The position numbers were made by a program, and so were the translations under genes. This document shows positions 20,994-52,131 of a DNA stretch of 64,000 bases, in pieces. Below the pieces are notes generated by a model that worked only from the letters and a program-made list of their open reading frames with translations, made no database searches and had not been told where the DNA came from. The stretch's first letter is position 1. Each line of letters begins with the position of its first letter. Source of the stretch: Dictyostelium discoideum (lineage: Eukaryota); contig CM000153.2 in assembly GCA_000004695.1 (NCBI GenBank), forward strand, positions 992,001 through 1,056,000. Reading direction: 5' to 3'.

Positions 20994-24773
<3,780 letters not shown>

Positions 24774-26004: not shown

Positions 26005-27153
26005 TTATTTTTTTTTTTGTAATAAATTTTTTTTATGAGTTATAAAAATAGTTATAATTACTAATATTGAGCCAATAACAGTTACCAATAATGTATAGAA
26101 TTTAACAGAATCATTATCATTTAATTGACCAACTGGGACATTTATAGAAATTGATTTTGAAATATCATCTAATAATAAATTATAATTTGTAATTAAATTC
26201 CAATTATCATTATTTGAGTTGTCATTGTTATTTAATACACTATTTGTTGGTTCACATGATAGATAAATTTGAGGAGATGAAATTATAGATTGACGAAAAG
26301 TATTACTATCACCATTATCACTGAATAAAGGATTTTGATAACGTAAATGAATTGGTAAAGTTAATTGAATATCTTGAGTAGCAGAACCGGTTGTATTGAA
26401 TTGTTTAATGATTGAAACGAAATTTTGAGTACTTGAGGTAGAAGGTTTCTCCAAATCGATCAATTGATAAATTACAACTTTTGGACCTCCAAATCTCTCA
26501 ATTTCATCCACTTCATATCTATCAACGAAAATACCTTGATCCAAATTCTCCAAAACCATAATTTTACACACTCCTGGTACAGTATCTCTCAATGGTGATT
26601 TCAAAGTAACATTAATAACAAGTTCACGATGAAATCCAGATTTCTTCACCAAATGATCTAATTTCAGTATAACCCATTCACTATCATCACCATCTTTAAC
26701 AAGAGTTGTTGTTTCAATATTATCAATCATTTCATCCAATTTACTTGCTTTTGAATTCTCTAATTTATAAATTTCTTTACTTTTATCAGCATTTAATAAA
26801 GCTAAAGTAGTGGAGGTAGTGGTAGTGGTAGTGGAGGTAGTTGAAATTGGATTATATTTAATTGTTAATTTATTAGTATTGATTAAAGTTTGTTCATTAA
26901 ATTCAATTGAATTTTTATTAATAGTTAAAGTGAAACCTAATAATTGATCATATGAATTTTCAATTGAATATGAAACTTTATGACTATTACAAAGTTTATG
27001 ATGATTAAAAATTGATAAACAATTTAGATAACTATTACTATTGAATAATTCAAGATATGATTTCTCATTTTCTTGTTTATTGAATTTACTTGATTGAATA
27101 ATACGTTGACGTTTAATTGAAATATCATTTATTGGCTTAAGAATATTACTATC

Positions 27154-27186
<33 letters not shown>

Positions 27187-27789
27187 TGTAAGGTAAGGTG
27201 GATTCATTGTATTTGGAATTAAACCCATATGTAATAAATTATCAAATATTGGTGATTCATTTGAAGAACATGGTTGAATTGAAGTATCCAATACTGATTC
27301 TAAAATTTTACAAATATTTAAAGTTTGATTGAATGTCATTGTTTTTATTGTTGAAAATTCATCCATTTGAATCTCTTTTGAACCATCTTTAAAATTTACT
27401 ACTATTCTAATTATTGGTTCAATTAAAGTTGGATATTTTGATGATGTTTTACTAAATTTACCTTTTAAATGATTATTATTAAAATAAACTATAATTGATT
27501 CAATATTATTATTATAATTATCATCATTAAATAAATTATTTTTAAAATTTGAAGTATGTTGATGTGATATTAAAAAATTATTAATTGAATTATCAGCACT
27601 ATTTGTTGTTGTAATATCGATTTTATCACTGTTAACATGATTTTTTAAATTTAATTTTTCATTCTCTTTTAAATCTTGTATAATTATAATATCATTTGAT
27701 TGATATGATTGATAATTTATATCTACAATTGCTGAAATAATTATTAAATTTATTATTATTAAAAATAATAATGATATTAATTTATTCAT
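26005..27789 (-). CDS. Type I membrane glycoprotein-like protein of 594 aa, with an N-terminal signal peptide and a single C-terminal TM helix followed by a KK-rich tail.
   Basis: ATG at 27787-27789 sits in an aaaaaATG context. The signal peptide reads MNKLISLLFLIIINLIIISA. There are many N-x-S/T sites. The C-terminal hydrophobic stretch FYTLLVTVIGSILVIITIFI is followed by THKKNLLQKKK. The frame is uninterrupted. Confidence 0.6.
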
Positions 27790-28191: not shown

Positions 28192-30856
28192 TTATGTATC
28201 AAATAAAACTTCTTCTTCATTATGATAATAATTATTATTACTATTTATAATTGAATTATTATATTGTTGAGTAGCAGATTTATGTTTATAGTTTTTATTT
28301 TTAATGATTTCATTCATTCTTTTTAAGAATCTTTGTTTATAAGGTTCAGGTCTAGTTGCAGAGATACCATCACCATCCTTTCTAAATAAATAAACCTTTA
28401 AAAATCTTTCCAATTTCTTACTAAAATCATAAAGTTGAAGTATATCAATAACACCAATATAATAGATTTCTTTTTCATCTGCTGATATAATACCATTTGA
28501 AAAATCGAATGAATTTGAAATTAATGATGAATTTGTAAAACTACCTTTTAATAAACCACCACTACCATGTCCATTATTATTATTATTAAAATTACTACCA
28601 CTACTACCACTACCAATACCATTACTATTACTATTACTATTATTATTATTTAAATTTGAACCACTTAAAATATTATTAATATTACCACCAGATTCAATTA
28701 ATTTCTTTTTAAAATCATCATTATTTGGAATTACACCAATTAGTAAAGAATAATCCATAATATTTAAAGAGGTTAAGAAAGCAGAATCATTTTTTAATTG
28801 TTGAATGATTGAATGACTAAAACCATCTGGTAAATTTAAAAATTTTCTAAAGTTTACAAAATCTAAATCTAAACCTAATCCATCACCTTTGAACAAAGGA
28901 TCATTGCCACCTCTGTTAACTTTTGAACCTTTAAGATCATACCTTTCTCTAATCTTTATACCTTGTGGAATTGTACCAAATACATTGGACATGATAGCCA
29001 AATAGATAGTATGATCATTTGGCATTGAAATCTTATGACAACCATAGAACCTCAATAGGAATGAATGGTTGTTCTTTACGAGATAGTTGTAAAAATTGTT
29101 GATTTTCTTTTTCAATAATACCGATTCTTGACGAGTGATAGTTTTAATTAAAAATTTATTATCTGGTGAGAAACACATAAAACTTCCACTTTTACCCTCT
29201 GAGAATTTCTGATTCGATAAATTCTCAAAAAACAACGATGAATCAAATGATTTCAAATAATCTGATGGTGTTATATTATTTAATGCTCTAATCTTTGCAA
29301 ATATATTTGGACAATAATCTTTAAATTTATGACTACCCATATTTGTATCTGGTGAAATATCAAAAATATCTTTAAATAATTCTTTTTCTGTATAAACTTT
29401 AAATTGTTCATTTATATTATCAAAATTATCATTACTATTATTATTATTATTATTAATATTATTATTACTATTATAATTATGATTAATTGGTGTTGATGAA
29501 GATGATGGTGATGATGATGATAATGAGTCAAATGGTAAATGTTGATGAATATCACCACCAATATGAGATTGATTATTATTATTATTTAATGAGGAGGAAT
29601 TTGATAAATTTAAATTATCATTTACAGATAATGCAATACCACGTAATGAACATGTTAAAATATTATTACGTAACATTACGGCCAATTGAGTTGGATCTTG
29701 ATTTTCATCTTGAAGTGAACGAATTAGTGGTGTGTTTTCACCATCTTTAATGAATTTCTTTGAGAATGGTAAATATTTCATAATGTTACCAAGGAAACCT
29801 CTGAGAATTGAAGGATTTGTAATCCAAATGAGTGCATTCATAAAACCTTGAATCGATACACCAATTGCATCGAAAAACATTAACACACTCGCTTGGTTGG
29901 GTGCATCATGGTGGCCTGCGATCTGCGAGATTCTGTGTGCCAATGGGCCTGCCCAACAGAGGATAAACACCAATGTGTAGGTCGACATTCTCAATAACAT
30001 TCCAGTACGATTACGATCTGACCATGAGTTATTGGTGGTTGATGATGTTAGTGATTTATTTCTAGTGGAGATTGCTGCTATGATCAATGAGGAGATCGAG
30101 ATTGAAAAGTATGCTAAAAGTGGTATGAAAAACATCAATAGCAATGGCTTGTCCTCTGCCTTGATCCAACATGTGCCATCGCCACTTGGTCCTATGACAT
30201 CGTAATTCTTGAACAGTATCGCACTTGTCACTATCGAGTACGACCATATCCAACCATGATAAAACTTGGAATAGGTTGAACTATTCTCGAATGGTCTACT
30301 CGTGCTAATGATCAAATTCAACGATATCATACCACTCCATCCAATAGATGCCAATCCAAAGAATTGCTGTATACCTGCTTGTAAATAACATGCCACCCTT
30401 TTCGTTTGAAAACTGTCACTATGTGGTAACACTGCTGTCACCAAATACTTTAAACTAAACAACACATCACAAACTGATAAAAAAAAGATCATACGTGTTG
30501 GATGTTTCTTTAAATCTTTAATAGTAATAAATGTAATAATAACAAATAATGCTCCAATACATGATAATAATGCTAAAGATCCTGATACTCTATATAATGT
30601 CTAAATATATAAAATAAATATATAAAATAAATAAATAAATAAAAAAAAAGTAGGTTAAAAAATTTTTTTTTTTTTTTTTTTTTTTTACAAATGTGAGAAT
30701 TGTTGTGTGTAGATATAAATCGGTTTGACCTATTTTTTTTTTTTTTTTTTTATTATTATTATTAAAAAAATTACTTACATGAATTTCTGGACTTTCACTT
30801 GATCCACCATGAGAAGAATCAAATGCATCTAATGAAATTCTTCCAGCAAAAGACAT
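28192..30856 (-). CDS. rpkA: Receptor phosphatidylinositol-phosphate kinase, about 828 aa, with an N-terminal 7TM GPCR-like domain fused to a C-terminal PIP5K catalytic domain (RpkA-like). Model: complement(join(28192..30600,30779..30856)).
   Basis: Exon 1 reads MSFAGRISLDAFDSSHGGSSESPEIH from ATG 30854-30856 and is followed by a GTAAGT donor. The acceptor tatttAG is at 30601-30602. Exon 2 in phase 0 starts mid-TM1, TLYRVSGSLALLSCIGALFVIITF.... Seven hydrophobic helices come next. The PIPK core follows, with GKSGSFMCFSPDNKFLIKTI and the diagnostic MDYSLLIGV motif. The symbol is inferred from this domain architecture. Confidence 0.7.
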
Positions 30857-31206
30857 TTTTTTAACTATTTTATCTATTTGACTTGAATGACCTTTTGATT
30901 GAAAAAATTTAGGGGAGATTTTTTTTTTTTTTTTATAAAAAAAGTTTTTTTATTTTTTTTTTTTATTATTATTTTTTTTTTTTTTTTACTTTTTTTTTTT
31001 TTTGGATATTTATTTATTTTTTTATTTAATCGAAAAAAATGGTGGCGTGAGGATTTTTTTTACTAGTAAAAGATAATTATTAATGACATATTTATTTTAG
31101 TAAAAATAATGATAAAAAAAAAAAAAAAAAAAAAATTTAACAATGGTTTTTTATTTTTTTTTTTTTTTTTTTATTTTTCAGAAAAAAATATACTAAATAA
31201 ATGAGT

Positions 31207-31935: not shown

Positions 31936-35322
<3,387 letters not shown>

Positions 35323-37583: not shown

Positions 37584-39872
37584 ATGGATACATTATCATT
37601 ATTTTTAGGATCAAAGGTAATAATAATAATTAGATTATTATTATTATTATTATTATTATAATTATTATTTTAAAATTAAAACCATATAATATTAATAATA
37701 TTTCTTTTATTTTAGGGTGAAAATAAAAAATTATTTAGCCAACTTTCAAAAATGGTATTAAACTCTGCAATTGATTCAAGAATTCAATACTGTGGTAATG
37801 AACCTTCAATTTTTGAAGATGATTATTTTGAATCTGATAATTTTAAAAAATCAAGTGAATTAATTAAAGAAAATACAAAGTTAATTTGTAATTATATTAA
37901 AGATTCTACTCAATTTTCAAGTTTACGATATCAAGCTCATATGATAGAAGATCCTTTAATTCCAAGTTTTATTGGTACAATTTCAGGCCTTTATTATAAT
38001 ACTAATACATGTACTCCTCAAGTTTCTAATAAATCTTCCTTTATTGAACATGCATTTGCTAGTGACCTATGTTCAATGGTAGGTTATGATACAAGTAAAA
38101 TACCAGATTATTATAATTCAATGAAAACAGTTTCAATAAAAGAAATAATTAAAAGAGAAGTTGAAACTGTATATCCTCATGGTCATAATACTAGTGGTGG
38201 TTCAGTATCAAACATTGAAGCATGTTGGTCAAGTTATTGGGTTAAATTTATTCCAGTTGCAATTAAAAATGCATTATTAAATGAAAATGATTTAATTGAT
38301 TCCAGGGAATTAACAATTACCCTAAATGATTGTAAAACTAATAAACAATTAATTGAATGTACAAATTGGGAATTATCAAATTTAAATGGAGATTTATCAG
38401 TAAAATTACCATATCAAATAAGTTTAGAATGTAATTTACCAATTGAAAATGTTTATGAAATTATTAAAAGATATCATTCGTGTTCATTGGGTGCATATCG
38501 GTTTTTTGTGGATAATCAAATTAATCAACCAATTTATTTAATACCAGCATCAGCTCATTATTGTTTTAAAAAAGCAGTATGTTTGATTGGATTAGGTTCA
38601 ACAAATATAAAATTAATAAAAATTGAACCAAATGGTAGAATAAATATAAATGATGTGAAAATGATTATTAAAAATTGTATTGAGAATCAAATTCCAATTA
38701 TTAATATCATATCGATATTAGGTTCAACCCAAGAGTATGGTGTCGATAATATTGATGAAATAGTTTCAATTAGAAATCAAGTAAGAAGAGACTTGAATTT
38801 TAATTTTGAAATGCATGTAGATGGTGCATTCGGTGGATATTCATTATCATGTATTAGAGATAACTTTCAATTGGAAAATCCATTAGATGATCAATTATTA
38901 TTTCCTAATAATATTGAAAATGAAAATAACAATCAAAATGAAATTGATTCATTTGATCCAGAATTAATAATTAGTAGTTATGTTAAAAAACAATTACATG
39001 CTTGTAAATTTGTAGATTCAATTACATTGGATGGTCATAAATCTGGCTTTTTACCATTTTCAAATAGTACAATTTGTTATAGAAATTCAAAGTATAAAGA
39101 TATTATTACACTCTCTTCTGCTTATATAGATATCTGTAAAAAGAATATTCCAAACTGTGGCGTGTTTGGTATTGAAGGTTCTCGTCCAGGTTATTCTTCA
39201 ATCGCAGGTTATTTAACTCATTCAATAATTCGTCCTTCGAAAATTGGATATGGTAAAATTTTAAAAAGATGTATTTTTAATGCAAAATTATTTTATATAT
39301 CCTTGTTAATTAAATTCGATGGTAATAATGGTAATAATATAAAAGTGTTTACAGTTGGTAATAATCCATCAAGTGATGTTTTAAATTATTTAAAAACAGA
39401 AATAATCGATTCGAATACTGGTAAAATCAAATCATTAGATCAAATTGTATCAAATAAAACATTATTACAAATTTTATCAAATTATGGAGCAGATTTAAAC
39501 GGTGTTTGTTTTGGTTTTAATTTTATTTCACCTTCAACTGGCGAATTAAATAATGATTATCAAAAATATGTAGAACTTAATAAAATGATAATTGATAGAT
39601 TCGATTATTCAAGAGGACCTGAAGCAGATTTGATATTTGGAAATACATTTTTAAATAATAGTTATGGTAATGAATTTATTTCAAATTTCCTTGAAACAAA
39701 TGAATTAAAAATTAATATCCCTATCTATAATAAAATCAAAATTCCAATACTAAGGTCATCAACTATGTCACCTTTTATTAGTGAAACATCTGAAGGTTCA
39801 TATATTGATATTATGCTTTACCTATTATTAAAAGAAATTACAGGTTTTTTATTTTCAATTGATAAATTATAA
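37584..39872 (+). CDS. Group II PLP-dependent decarboxylase-like protein, copy 1, about 717 aa, join(37584..37616,37716..39872).
   Basis: Exon 1 is ATGGATACATTATCATTATTTTTAGGATCAAAG (MDTLSLFLGSK), followed by a GTAATA donor. The acceptor ttttAG is at 37714-37715. Exon 2 in phase 0 begins GENKKLFSQLSKMVLNS.... The fold-type I / group II motifs are HNTSGGSVSNIEA, ILGSTQEYGVDNIDEI, MHVDGAFGGY, and the PLP-lysine motif SITLDGHKSGFLPFSNS. Confidence 0.75.
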
Positions 39873-41127: not shown

Positions 41128-43392
41128 ATGGATTCTTTATCATTATTTTTAGGATCAAAGGTAATATCTTTATATTATTATTATAAATCTCAAACCATAT
41201 TAATTAATTTTTTTTTTTTTTTAAAAAAAAATTAGGGTGAAAATAAAAAATTATTTTCTGAACTTTCAAAAATGGTATCAAACTATGCAATTGATTCAAG
41301 AATTAAATATAGTGGTAATGAACCTTCAATTTTTGAAGATGATTATTTTGAATCTGATGATTTTATAAAATCAAGTGAATTAATTAAAGAAAATACAAAA
41401 TTAATTTGTAATTATATTAAAGATTCTACTCAATTTTCAAGTTTAAGATATCAAGCTCATATGGTTACTGATCCCTTAATTCCAAGTTTTATTGGTACAA
41501 TTGCTGGTCTTTTTTATAACTCTAATATATGTACTACTCAATCTTCTAATAAAACTTCCTTTATTGAATATGAATTTGCAAATGATCTTTGTTCGATGGT
41601 AGGTTATGATACAAGTAATATACCAGATTATTATAATTCAATCAAAACAGTTTCTATAAAAGAAAAAGTTCAAAGAGAATTTGAAACTGTATATCCACAT
41701 GGTCATAATACTAGTGGTGGTTCAGTATCAAACATTGAAGCATGTTGGTCAAGTTATTGGGTTAAATTTATTCCAGTTGCAATTAAAAATGCATTATTAA
41801 ATGAAAATGATTTAATTGATTCCAAAAATTTATTTATTACATTAGAAGATGGTAAAACCAATAAATTATTAATTGAATGTACAAATTGGGAATTATCAAA
41901 TTTAAATGGTGATTTATCAGTAAAATTACCATATCAAATAAGTTTAGAATGTAATTTACCAATTGAAAATGTTTATGAAATTATTAAAAGATATCATTTA
42001 TGCTCATTAGGTACATTTAAATTTTTTGTAAAAAATAAAATTAATGAACCAATTTATTTAATACCAGCATCAGCTCATTATTGTTTTAAAAAGGCAGTAT
42101 GTTTGATTGGATTAGGCTCAGATAATATAAAACTAATAAAAATTGAACCAAATGGTAGAATGAATATAAATGAAGTAAAAACGATTATTAAAAACTGTAT
42201 TGAAAATCAAATTCCAATCATTAATATCATATCGATATTAGGTTCGACTCAAGAGTATGGTGCTGATAATATCGATGAAATTGTTTCAATTAGAAATCAA
42301 GTAAGAAGAGACTTTAATTTTAATTTTGAAATGCATGTAGATGGTGCGTTCGGTGGATATTCATTATCATGTATTAGAGAGAACTTTTGGTTGAAAAATC
42401 CATTAGATTATCAATTATCATTACCTAATAATTTTGAAAATGAACAAAATAATCAAAACGAAACTGATTCATTTGATCCAGAATTAATAATTAGTAGTTT
42501 TTTAAAAAAACAATTACATGCTTGTAAGTTTGTAGATTCAATTACATTGGATGGTCATAAATCTGGCTTTTTACCATTTTCAAATAGTACAATTTGTTAT
42601 AGAAATTCAAAGTATAAAGATATTCTAACATTAGCTCCTGTTTATGTCGATGATGGAAAAAAGAATATTCCAAACTGTGGTGTGTTTGGTATTGAAGGTT
42701 CTCGTCCTGGTCATTCTTCAGTTGCAGGTTATTTAACTCATTCAATAATTCGTCCTTCGAAAAACGGATATGGTAAACTTTTAAAAAGATGTATTTTAAA
42801 TTCGAAATTATTTTATATTTCCTTGTTAATTAAATTCGATGGTAATAATGGTAATAATATAAAAGTGGTCACAGTTGGTAATAACCCATCCAGTGATGTT
42901 TTAAATTATTTAAAAACAGAAATCATCGATTCGAATACTGGTAAAATCAAATCATTAGATCAAATTGTATCAAATAAAACATTATTACAAATTTTATCAA
43001 ATTATGGAGCAGATTTAAACGGTGTTTGTTTTGGTTTTAATTTTATTTCACCTTCAACTGGTGAATTAAATAATGATTATCAAAAATATGTAGAACTTAA
43101 TAAAATGATAATTGATAGATTCGATTATTCAAGAGGACCTGAAGCAGATTTGATATTTGGAAATACATTTTTAAATAATAGTTATGGTAATGAATTTATT
43201 TCAAATTTCCTTGAAACAAATGAATTAAAAATTAACATTCAAGCCTATAATAAAATCAAAATTCCATTACTCAGGTCATCAACTATGTCACCTTTTATTA
43301 GTGAAACATCTGATGGTTCATATATTGATATAATGCTTGACCTATTATTAAAAGAAATTACAGATTTTTTATTTTCAATTGATAAATTATAA
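41128..43392 (+). CDS. Group II PLP-dependent decarboxylase-like protein, copy 2, a tandem paralogue about 90% identical to copy 1, join(41128..41160,41236..43392).
   Basis: Same two-exon structure as copy 1. Exon 1 reads MDSLSLFLGSK and is followed by a GTAATA donor. The acceptor attAG is at 41234-41235. The protein is collinear with copy 1 and has the same motifs, including DGHK. Confidence 0.75.
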
Positions 43393-47784: not shown

Positions 47785-49314
47785 TTAATTAACATACTGG
47801 AAAAGTTTGTCAAAATGAAATGAAATTTCTATGTTATCAATTACAATATCACCTTTTATATCTTTTATTTCAAAAATAATTTTATCCATTTGGAATCCTG
47901 GGTTAATGTCATATTTTTTAGTTCCATAGTACATTTTATTTTTATTATTAATTAATGAATTGCTATTTAATATATCATTATTAAAAGAATCCATATTTAA
48001 TTTTTTAATATTAACTTTTTCTAGAAATAATTTTGTTTGATTTGTTTTTGAATATGTTGAATTTATAAATAATAAAAAAGATAATTCACTCTCTATTTCT
48101 AAACAATTATTGTTATTATTTAAATTAATTTCATTTAATTTAAAATCATTTGAACAATGAATTAATATTGAAATTTGATTAAATTGTTTTTCTCCATTAA
48201 ATGATATTGATGTTTTTAAAATTTCATTTTTATTTATTGATGAAAAAAAAGGAATTAAACCAGATACTTGATCTATTAATTCATCTTGATTATTATTATT
48301 ATTATTAGTTGTGTTGTTGTTGTTGTTGTTGTTGTTGTTATTGTAATTATTAATACAATACATTAATGACTTTGGTTGAATTTTAAAAATATATAATTCT
48401 TCATTAAAATTATTTATTATTAAATTATTTTCATTTGTTTTTTCATCTTTTTTTGCACAAATAATTTTAATTGGATATTTATAATTTAAATAATCCAATT
48501 CATTAAATCTTGAAACATTTTTTAAAGTATTGTTTATTGTTGTTTTCAATTTATAAATATTATATTCATTAGTGTTTGACAATAATTGAAAAAATGAAAA
48601 TCCAAAATTATTTTGAAATTTTATTATTTCATTACGAAATTCATTTTGTAATTGTTTTTTCTTTTTTGGGTCAATACTAAATCCCCATTCATTACCATTA
48701 TTAATATAATCAATTTTTAAACAACTATATATTGACATATTTAAAGTTGATAATTTTAAAATTTGTTTTAAAAAAGTTGAAGTTGAAAAAGATGATAATG
48801 ACGATGAAGATGATTGTATCAGTGATGAAACAGGTTTAAAATAAAAGTCACTATATTCATTTAATAAAATTATTAATTTTGAATAATAATTTCTAATATT
48901 TAATTTTAAATTTTCATTTGAAAATTTAGAAAATTCTTGAAAATTAATAGTTTTTGAATTATAATTTGTAATAATTGATTTAATAGTTTTGTTACCAACA
49001 TTTCTAATTTCCCAAATTTTTAGTAAATCACATAAATTATTTCCATTCTCTTGTAAACTATATAAATTATTATTTAAAAATATTATAATTTCATCATTTA
49101 TTTTTTCATTTATTAATTGTTCAATATCTTGAATTAAACCATAAAATATTTTATTAAAATCATTTTGGTTTAAATAATTATTATCATCAAATGAGAATAG
49201 TGTTCCCCAAAATCCACTAAATATTCCTGATTTTAATTCATTATTAAATGGATTTAATCCAATTAAATTATATAATAATTGATATGATAATTCAATTCTA
49301 TCAATATCTTCCAT
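47785..49314 (-). CDS. Hypothetical protein of 509 aa, Asn/Ile/Leu-rich, with no recognised domain.
   Basis: ATG at 49312-49314. Long uninterrupted frame. It carries a poly-N tract typical of this genome. Confidence 0.45.
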   Translation of the reverse strand: MEDIDRIELSYQLLYNLIGLNPFNNELKSGIFSGFWGTLFSFDDNNYLNQNDFNKIFYGLIQDIEQLINEKINDEIIIFLNNNLYSLQENGNNLCDLLKIWEIRNVGNKTIKSIITNYNSKTINFQEFSKFSNENLKLNIRNYYSKLIILLNEYSDFYFKPVSSLIQSSSSSLSSFSTSTFLKQILKLSTLNMSIYSCLKIDYINNGNEWGFSIDPKKKKQLQNEFRNEIIKFQNNFGFSFFQLLSNTNEYNIYKLKTTINNTLKNVSRFNELDYLNYKYPIKIICAKKDEKTNENNLIINNFNEELYIFKIQPKSLMYCINNYNNNNNNNNNNTTNNNNNNQDELIDQVSGLIPFFSSINKNEILKTSISFNGEKQFNQISILIHCSNDFKLNEINLNNNNNCLEIESELSFLLFINSTYSKTNQTKLFLEKVNIKKLNMDSFNNDILNSNSLINNKNKMYYGTKKYDINPGFQMDKIIFEIKDIKGDIVIDNIEISFHFDKLFQYVN

Positions 49315-50994: not shown

Positions 50995-52131
50995 ATGTAT
51001 ACACAACAAAAACAAACACAAACACAAACACAAAATGTTAACAATAATCAATCACGAATAATACCATCTTCTTTTTCTTTTCAATCATCACAATCAAATA
51101 ATAAAGTATATAAACCAATACCATTGAAAGAGATGGAATTATTTTTATTCACTATACCAAGTAAAGAAAAGACTTTAATGTTAACAGATTTAGACGAAAA
51201 TACGACAAAGAAGGATATAGAGATAGCATTTTCAAGGTTTGGTTTAATCTATGATATTGTTGTTTACACAAATAAAAACTCTAAGCGAATATTAGGGTTA
51301 ATTAAATATTGTCTTGAAAACAGTGCTATATCAGCACTGAATCATCATCATACCATTGAAAAGATAAAAATCAATGGGAGAGAATGTACATCTGTAGTAT
51401 TATCAAGTTTTAAAAGTGACAAACCCTTTGAAATACCATTTCCAAAATCATTACAAATTATCAATCATCTTTTAGGTTTTAATCAATGGTCTACTGAAAT
51501 AGATAGATTCGAACATGAATACACTCGAGAGATTTTACTTGAAACTGATTTAAATGGTGTACCACTACAAACACCAATTAGAAAATATGAATCGAAATGG
51601 TATGCTTTGGTTTATTCAACATTCAAACAAATTGACGTTAGAATTAGTACAGTTTCACATGGTGTTGGTGAAGACTCTTGTAAGATTGAGGCAACTAGAA
51701 ATGCTAAAAAGGTTGCAGTTTCAAATTCAAGAAAATTAGCATTCACAAAAATTGGTATACTAATCATTAAGGATCAATCACCAATACCCTGTATATTAGA
51801 TCAAGACTCAATAGTAGATAGTAGTTCAAATAATTTTAACTCTGATTGTAATCAATATATGTTTGATAATAATTTAATTCAAAATGATGAAAATGAACAA
51901 CAACAAGAAGAAGAAGAAGAACAACAACAACAAGAAGAATTTGATGAAAATGAATTTCAAAATAATGATATAGATTTCGATTTTGATACCAATGATAGTA
52001 ACCCAACTGATTTAGATGTTGATGTTGATGTTGACATTGATACTGATGTTGATTTTAGTTCTGATATTAAAATTGATGATTCTAATGTTGATGCAGGTGT
52101 TGATATTGATGTTGATATTTCAATACCTTGA
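50995..52131 (+). CDS. RAD52 motif-containing protein 1 (RDM1)-like protein of 378 aa, with an RRM-like domain plus a RAD52-like motif and an acidic C-terminal repeat (DVDVDVDID).
   Basis: The RRM-like segment reads LFLFTIPSKEKTLMLTDLDENTTKKDIEIAFSRFGLIYDIVVY. The RAD52-like segment reads INHLLGFNQWSTEI...KWYALVYSTFKQIDVRISTVSHGVGEDSCKIEATRNAKKVAVSNSRKLAF. Single exon. Confidence 0.55.
   Translation: MYTQQKQTQTQTQNVNNNQSRIIPSSFSFQSSQSNNKVYKPIPLKEMELFLFTIPSKEKTLMLTDLDENTTKKDIEIAFSRFGLIYDIVVYTNKNSKRILGLIKYCLENSAISALNHHHTIEKIKINGRECTSVVLSSFKSDKPFEIPFPKSLQIINHLLGFNQWSTEIDRFEHEYTREILLETDLNGVPLQTPIRKYESKWYALVYSTFKQIDVRISTVSHGVGEDSCKIEATRNAKKVAVSNSRKLAFTKIGILIIKDQSPIPCILDQDSIVDSSSNNFNSDCNQYMFDNNLIQNDENEQQQEEEEEQQQQEEFDENEFQNNDIDFDFDTNDSNPTDLDVDVDVDIDTDVDFSSDIKIDDSNVDAGVDIDVDISIP

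Follow-up and report, generated by a model that had tools for sequence, protein, structure and literature searches.

Where does the protein encoded at positions 28192..30856 of the window begin, and what could a receptor and a lipid kinase joined on a single polypeptide do for the cell? The window, by which we mean the whole stretch of 64,000 nucleotides (nt) analysed here, comes from Dictyostelium discoideum (assembly GCA_000004695.1, contig CM000153.2, positions 992,001 to 1,056,000 of the forward strand) and has a guanine-plus-cytosine (GC) content of 23%; the gene lies on its minus strand (Table 1). We conclude that the locus is almost certainly rpkA (receptor phosphatidylinositol kinase A), and that the two-exon model read from the window equals the public annotation. 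The spliced product of 828 amino acids (aa) is identical over its full length to the D. discoideum AX4 protein EAL65574.1 / XP_638982.1 / UniRef100_Q86D86, as found by exact look-up in a collection of ~15 billion proteins. The original prediction had given the gene exactly these coordinates, and its product of 828 aa is confirmed by the spliced translation and by the database match. It had called the gene ‘RpkA-like’, a fusion of a GPCR (G-protein-coupled receptor) to a phosphatidylinositol phosphate kinase (PIPK): the fusion stands, but given the identity to XP_638982.1 / Q86D86 the label is too weak for what is evidently rpkA itself.

The title of the database record is only ‘G-protein-coupled receptor family protein’. 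We use the name RpkA because the length, the construct numbering and the isoelectric point (pI) of the tail match the published RpkA, and because D. discoideum has a single GPCR-PIPK gene. Riyahi et al. 2011 worked with RpkA constructs GST-PIPK370-828 and 343-805, and gave the ‘last 23 residues’ of the protein a pI of 4.0 (PMC3206951). For residues 806-828 of the product translated here (YNNSIINSNNNYYHNEEEVLFDT) we compute a pI of 4.05, an acidic tail in agreement with the published protein. Furthermore, rpkA is the sole GPCR-PIPK (‘type IV PIPK’) gene reported for D. discoideum (PMC3206951). The gene is thus the one described by Bakthavatsalam et al. 2006/2007 and Riyahi et al. 2011 (PMC3206951), with no difference between them. 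Other D. discoideum isolates depart from the 828-aa protein by the substitution A4T, a few further substitutions and the length of tracts rich in Asn and Ser, which brings their products to 836 and 843 aa. We found nothing that contradicts the identity or the gene model; public databases and papers already cover the gene with its two exons, its domain architecture and the phenotypes of its knock-outs.

The beginning of the protein takes some reconstruction from the raw letters. The listing of open reading frames (ORFs) holds, on the minus strand, a 766-aa frame at 28192..30492 that begins MIFFLSV, to which we refer below as the naive ORF, and a separate 88-aa frame at 30590..30856 that begins MSFAGRISLDAFDSSHGGSSESPEIH. 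Upstream of its first ATG at 30492, the long frame stays open for 36 further codons, up to 30600, and is bounded there by a TAG (30603..30601), within which lies the AG of a T-rich acceptor (..ATATATTTAG). The short frame, for its part, reaches a consensus donor, GTAAGT, at 30778. With 30778..30601 removed, the 26 codons of exon 1 run on in phase 0 into the long frame, and the product is an uninterrupted protein of 828 aa, 62 residues longer than the naive ORF, where the original prediction had estimated a gain of about 60. As the 178 nt of the intron are not a multiple of 3, its retention shifts the frame, which then ends at 30590; the 88-aa ORF is this dead end. Upstream of the ATG at 30856 there is an in-frame TAA at 30952, with no ATG between the two.

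The junction falls between H26 and T27 (junction peptide ISLDAFDSSHGGSSESPEIHTLYR). The original prediction had exon 1 spliced onto the middle of the first transmembrane helix (TM1); the junction lies instead at helix 1's N-terminal end, and the hydrophobic core of this helix, residues 33-55, is wholly in exon 2. What exon 1 encodes is a short N-terminal tail, extracellular or luminal and predicted to be disordered, with a predicted local distance difference test score (pLDDT) of ~33 for residues 1-20. What the naive ORF loses is the entire TM1 together with the basic first intracellular loop.

That a first exon of 78 nt is needed, as had been claimed, is borne out by the splice sites, by the drop in GC from exon to intron and by an intron position conserved in four other genomes. 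These are D. citrinum, D. firmibasis, a second D. discoideum isolate and Polysphondylium violaceum, in each of which the intron is in phase 0 at the same place (Table 1). The two sides of the donor have evolved differently: exon 1 is 95% identical to that of D. discoideum in D. citrinum and 85% in D. firmibasis, synonymous changes included, whereas the intron is 56% and 63% identical, respectively, and has gained or lost sequence in steps that are not multiples of three. The junction ‘IH|xLYR’ is kept as far as P. violaceum, and independent annotations agree on the N-terminus in five genomes.

The term ‘micro-exon’, which the original prediction had used for exon 1, does not fit. Cut-offs for micro-exons usually lie at ~30 nt and are at most 51 nt; with 78 nt in D. 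discoideum, D. citrinum and D. firmibasis, exon 1 is short and still above them. A true micro-exon is found in the P. violaceum orthologue (AJWJ01000755.1, L003:6001-6100), where the first exon has 18 nt, and the N-terminal tail has therefore grown longer, to 26 residues, in the D. discoideum group. To judge from its span, the P. violaceum gene also has ~149 nt of additional intron sequence with no counterpart in D. discoideum.

Could translation simply begin at the ATG at 30492 (M63)? No ATG precedes it in the long ORF, and a start there would give a 766-aa protein with six helices and turn the 78-nt ‘exon’ into a chance ORF. We consider this very improbable. The 36 open codons between 30600 and 30492 encode TM1 and the basic intracellular loop, and the residues concerned are conserved. 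In an alignment of 15 sequences, made up of 10 from dictyostelids (three D. discoideum isolates, D. citrinum, D. firmibasis, D. dimigraforme, Polysphondylium, Tieghemostelium and Acytostelium) and 5 environmental or EukProt sequences, residues 28-62 (LYRxSGSLAxLS..GALFVIITFITIKDLKKHPTR) are conserved in 14, the exception (P0012) being a sequence that starts after TM1. M63 is not a conserved initiator, since P. violaceum has Leu at this position. Moreover, the 7TM (seven-transmembrane) fold of a GPCR requires helix 1, which the 766-aa product lacks, and exon 1 stays at exactly 78 nt with synonymous changes while the intron varies by insertions and deletions, a pattern at odds with a chance ORF. 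Finally, the 766-aa product has no exact match in the ~15-billion-protein collection, in which the 828-aa product is present, and the published RpkA numbering reaches 828. The naive ORF is thus rejected as the product by the database match and by the conservation of TM1 upstream of it, and the ATG at 30492 is internal, as had been predicted: a start there would delete a conserved helix.

The two-exon model could also be right in outline and wrong in its splice sites, with another donor–acceptor pair, or an additional upstream exon, giving the true N-terminus. There is room for this in the letters, as 30 GT..AG pairs between 30856 and 30493 keep the frame and introduce no stop. Only 30778/30601 among them combines the consensus donor GTAAGT with a T-rich tract before the AG, and only this pair preserves the conserved junction EIH|TLYR, at the intron position shared with the four other genomes. 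The remaining pairs were rejected, being without consensus donor and conserved junction residues. A further exon upstream is opposed by the TAA at 30952, with no ATG from there to 30856, and by the concordant annotations of the five genomes. We regard a different N-terminus as scarcely credible and retain the splice from 30778 to 30601.

The polypeptide that results from this splice joins a receptor to a kinase, both lying within the ORF of exon 2. That a 7TM receptor-like domain and a PIPK domain share one chain had been predicted, and Pfam, AlphaFold 2 (AF2) models and Foldseek agree on it. Over residues ~30-300, the Pfam 7TM families Dicty_CAR (E 3.2e-20), Frizzled, 7tm_1 and 7tm_2 all match above their gathering scores. 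The AF2 model of residues 27-356 (pLDDT 75.7, predicted template modelling score (pTM) 0.71) has transmembrane helices at 28-52, 62-83, 94-127, 133-157, 177-210, 221-253 and 265-286, followed by helix 8 at 289-302 and a further helix at 329-351; in the model of the full-length protein, helix 1 is predicted to begin earlier and to span 23-52. A beta-hairpin in the second extracellular loop surrounds the invariant sequence GxSGDGTCW (residues 163-171) in the model. When the receptor model was compared with the PDB by Foldseek, GPCRs only were returned, the best being FZD7, SMO, FZD4 and ADGRG2 (E ~1e-6, TM-scores ~0.62-0.69), and phmmer also matched Frizzled-7 (E 2e-5).

By fold, then, the closest structural matches of the RpkA receptor are class F (Frizzled/Smoothened) and adhesion GPCRs, and by Pfam family its best match is Dicty_CAR, that of the cAR/Crl receptors; in a published phylogeny, rpkA falls in a clade inside the Dicty_CAR family (PMC10445921). 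RpkA differs from both groups in that its C-terminus carries an enzyme. The region before helix 1 amounts to only ~22-27 residues, and the Pfam scan found no extracellular ligand-binding domain in it. Because there are seven helices and the basic loop KDLKKHPTR is on the cytosolic side, we infer that the N-terminus is outside or luminal and the kinase cytosolic, near ATP and the phosphoinositides of the inner leaflet. Between receptor and kinase stands the motif LRx9GI, a GPCR-PIPK hallmark in the description of van den Hoogen et al. 2018 (PMC5784254). In RpkA it is contained in the predicted linker helix 329-351, which reaches residue 364 in the full-length AF2 model, and its residues R337 and G347 are invariant in the orthologues.

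The kinase half is equally well delimited. A Pfam scan of the 828-aa product returned PIP5K at E 6.7e-72 and 242.6 bits, against a cut-off of 27, in line with the earlier claim of a PIPK domain carrying the motif MDYSLLIGV; MDYSLL is found at residues 641-646 (window positions 28758..28741). The other ATP/Mg-binding and catalytic motifs are intact as well: the G-loop GKSGS (495-499), Lys512 (in LIKT), DLKGS (581-585), Asp745 (in VIDIL) and an activation loop KKLER (754-758) with the KK pair at 754-755. Across the 15 aligned sequences, GKSGS, K512, DLKGS, MDYSLL, D745 and the KK/E of the loop are invariant or nearly so. Sequence searches of the PDB with the kinase half matched PIP4K2A/B/C and zebrafish PIP5K1A (E 1e-28 to 1e-31), and Foldseek matched PIP4K2A/B and zebrafish PIP5K1A (E ~1e-12). 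Type I (zebrafish PIP5K1A, PDB 4tz7/6cmw) and type II kinases (PIP4K2A/B/C, PDB 1bo1, 2ybx, 2gk9) thus share the fold and the catalytic motifs of RpkA. The matched chains are 348-453 residues long and align to residues 423-792 of RpkA only, with none of the 7TM region covered.

The E-values of these PDB matches, taken overall, fail to separate type I from type II for RpkA, and the alignment of the activation loop alone is informative: opposite KKLER of RpkA, type I PIP5K1A has KKLEH and type II PIP4K2C has KKAAH, and the RpkA loop, with its Glu, resembles type I rather than type II. Kunz and co-workers are said to have found, in 2002, that the Glu/Ala position of this loop switches the substrate specificity of PIPKs. 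A further difference from type I and type II kinases is a long low-complexity insert in the RpkA kinase domain, and a second tract of similar composition lies in the linker (Table 1). Residues 668-723 and 359-423 have pLDDT <50 and are predicted to be disordered. Both tracts are polymorphic in length, across species as well as among D. discoideum isolates (828, 836 and 843 aa), in which the rest of the protein is ~98% identical (P0002, P0003).

RpkA thus combines an N-terminal 7TM domain, the LRx9GI motif and a C-terminal PIPK with DLKGS, MDYSL and the activation-loop KK, the features by which GPCR-PIPKs are recognised. It has this architecture, LRx9GI and the kinase motifs in common with the GPCR-PIPKs (‘GPCR-bigrams’) of Phytophthora and other protists (PMC5784254). 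Its identity to GPCR-PIPKs of oomycetes and other protists is ~25% (PMC3206951), and oomycetes have ~12-13 GPCR-PIPK paralogues as compared to the one of D. discoideum (PMC3206951). Our word-indexed homologue search, which is limited, found GPCR-PIPK architectures in Amoebozoa-like sources only and no oomycete ones. Published records of GPCR-PIPKs cover Amoebozoa, oomycetes, ciliates, haptophytes, Rhizaria, Apusozoa, choanoflagellates, Capsaspora and a sponge (PMC5784254; PMC3206951), and an origin as early as the last eukaryotic common ancestor has been argued for (PMC5784254; PMC3206951; PMC10445921). The original prediction had called the architecture ‘lineage-restricted’, a description that is outdated, given how widespread GPCR-PIPKs are among protists and their presence in a sponge (PMC5784254; PMC3206951).

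The cell biology of RpkA is known from the literature. The protein is found on endosomes and is recruited to maturing phagosomes, and its kinase domain binds V-ATPase subunits and the lipids phosphatidylinositol 3-phosphate (PI3P), phosphatidylinositol 4-phosphate (PI4P) and phosphatidylserine (PS) (PMC3206951). The rpkA knock-outs have lower levels of phosphatidylinositol phosphate (PIP) and bisphosphate (PIP2), take up less yeast by phagocytosis and allow more Legionella replication; furthermore, they tolerate nitrogen starvation less well and are impaired in cell-density sensing (PMC3206951).

That ligand sensing is coupled directly to PIP2 synthesis, which the original prediction had stated as a fact, is a published hypothesis, and its steps would be as follows. 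A ligand, or the luminal milieu, would change the conformation of the 7TM bundle of RpkA. This change would be relayed via helix 8 and the LRx9GI helix to the attached kinase, which, on the cytosolic face, would sit beside its lipid substrates. The kinase would then be regulated so that PI4P is converted locally to phosphatidylinositol 4,5-bisphosphate (PI(4,5)P2), with or without G proteins. In its strictest form, RpkA would be a self-contained unit, in which a luminal or extracellular cue on maturing phagosomes activates a type-I-like PIPK via helix 8 and LRx9GI for local, G-protein-free production of PI(4,5)P2. We put this forward tentatively, as something possible rather than probable. Self-contained signalling by RpkA is an idea already put forward in published work (PMC6033456; PMC5784254), to which the window adds only that all catalytic residues and the type-I Glu are intact.

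Several points limit the picture drawn here. The splice junction is placed by comparison and annotation rather than by complementary DNA (cDNA). The type-I-like (PI4P 5-kinase) specificity is a prediction from one activation-loop residue, and the kinase domains of RpkA are reported to form a clade of their own, type IV, apart from types I-III (PMC5784254). The full-length AF2 model has a pTM of 0.47 and is unreliable on the contact between receptor and kinase. Most directly, the literature reports no ligand, substrate, product, catalysis or in vitro activity for any GPCR-PIPK (PMC3206951; PMC5784254).

This last point also speaks for a different role altogether, in which regulated catalysis would not be the function of the kinase domain. 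RpkA would then be a conventional G-protein-coupled receptor, a scaffold that binds the V-ATPase and phosphoinositides, or both, and the drop of PIP and PIP2 in the knock-out would be indirect. The binding of V-ATPase subunits, PI3P, PI4P and PS is in fact a property of the isolated PIPK domain (PMC3206951), and reviews count a role as scaffold or conventional receptor as a possibility. We nevertheless consider such a role unlikely. The Pfam score of the kinase is far over the cut-off, the loss of RpkA does lower PIP and PIP2 (PMC3206951), and every catalytic motif has been kept intact, with little or no variation among the 15 aligned sequences, which argues for purifying selection on catalysis. 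Such strict conservation of the catalytic residues weakens the case for a scaffold, which is still the main alternative.

Table 1. The rpkA gene and its product in the window, the 5' end of rpkA in relatives, and other ORFs in the window
Feature	Position in window	Strand	Details
Exon 1	30779..30856	-	78 nt; ATG + 25 codons; MSFAGRISLDAFDSSHGGSSESPEIH; 34.6% GC
Intron, phase 0	30601..30778	-	178 nt; GTAAGT...TTTAG; 11.8% GC
Exon 2	28192..30600	-	2409 nt including TAA stop 28194..28192; 29.0% GC; residues 27-828, with all seven TM helices, linker and PIPK domain
Internal ATG (Met63)	30490..30492	-	start of TM2; start of naive 766-aa ORF
7TM receptor domain	29773..30597	-	residues 28-302; Pfam, AF2 model, Foldseek, phmmer
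LRx9GI motif	29635..29673	-	residues 336-348; LRNNILTCSLRGI; between receptor and kinase
Second Asn/Ser/Gly-rich tract	~29412..29604	-	linker, ~residues 359-423
PIPK catalytic domain	28306..29223	-	residues 486-791; Pfam PIP5K (PF01504)
Asn/Ser/Gly-rich low-complexity insert	28489..28731	-	~residues 650-730; inside kinase domain, between MDYSLL and IID strand
rpkA, D. citrinum			exon 1 78 nt; intron 136 nt; same phase-0 position after ‘...IH’
rpkA, D. firmibasis			exon 1 78 nt; intron 157 nt; same phase-0 position after ‘...IH’
rpkA, second D. discoideum isolate			exon 1 78 nt; intron 185 nt; same phase-0 position after ‘...IH’
rpkA, P. violaceum			exon 1 18 nt (MSSDIH); intron 67 nt; same phase-0 position after ‘...IH’
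ORF, PIG-X/PBN1 homologue	26005..27789	-	594 aa
ORF, NRDE-2 homologue	31936..35322	-	1128 aa
ORF, decarboxylase domain	37752..39872	+	706 aa
ORF, decarboxylase domain	41272..43392	+	706 aa
ORF, RRM_1 and Rad52_Rad22	50995..52131	+	378 aa
ORF	21242..24049	-	935 aa
ORF	47785..49314	-	509 aa

The surroundings of rpkA are conserved as well. Directly downstream, the 594-aa ORF encodes a homologue of PIG-X/PBN1, a subunit of the glycosylphosphatidylinositol (GPI) mannosyltransferase (PF08320, E 1e-36), and upstream the 1128-aa ORF encodes a homologue of NRDE-2 (PF08424, E 8.5e-71, HAT repeats). The latter probably belongs to a longer spliced gene, as its orthologues are annotated at ~1292-1328 aa. 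This order, with PIG-X downstream and a long gene upstream, is kept in D. citrinum, D. firmibasis and the second D. discoideum isolate; rpkA and PIG-X are adjacent in D. citrinum and in the second isolate, and D. firmibasis has one extra gene between them. Elsewhere in the window, the two 706-aa ORFs, 3.5 kb apart and 90% identical to each other without gaps, both carry a pyridoxal-dependent decarboxylase domain (PF00282) and look like a recent tandem gene duplication. The 378-aa ORF shows weak matches to RRM_1 (E 4e-5) and Rad52_Rad22 (E 1.6e-4), an unusual pairing. The 935-aa and 509-aa ORFs gave no Pfam match at E <= 0.001, and a scan of the window for transfer RNA genes found none.

For gene finding, the locus serves as a positive control: a reading of the raw sequence gave the correct spliced model, where an ORF caller of the prokaryotic style truncates the protein by 62 residues and loses TM1. 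For the biology of the GPCR-PIPK family, RpkA is a good experimental system in which to ask whether direct gating of a covalently joined enzyme by a GPCR is possible.

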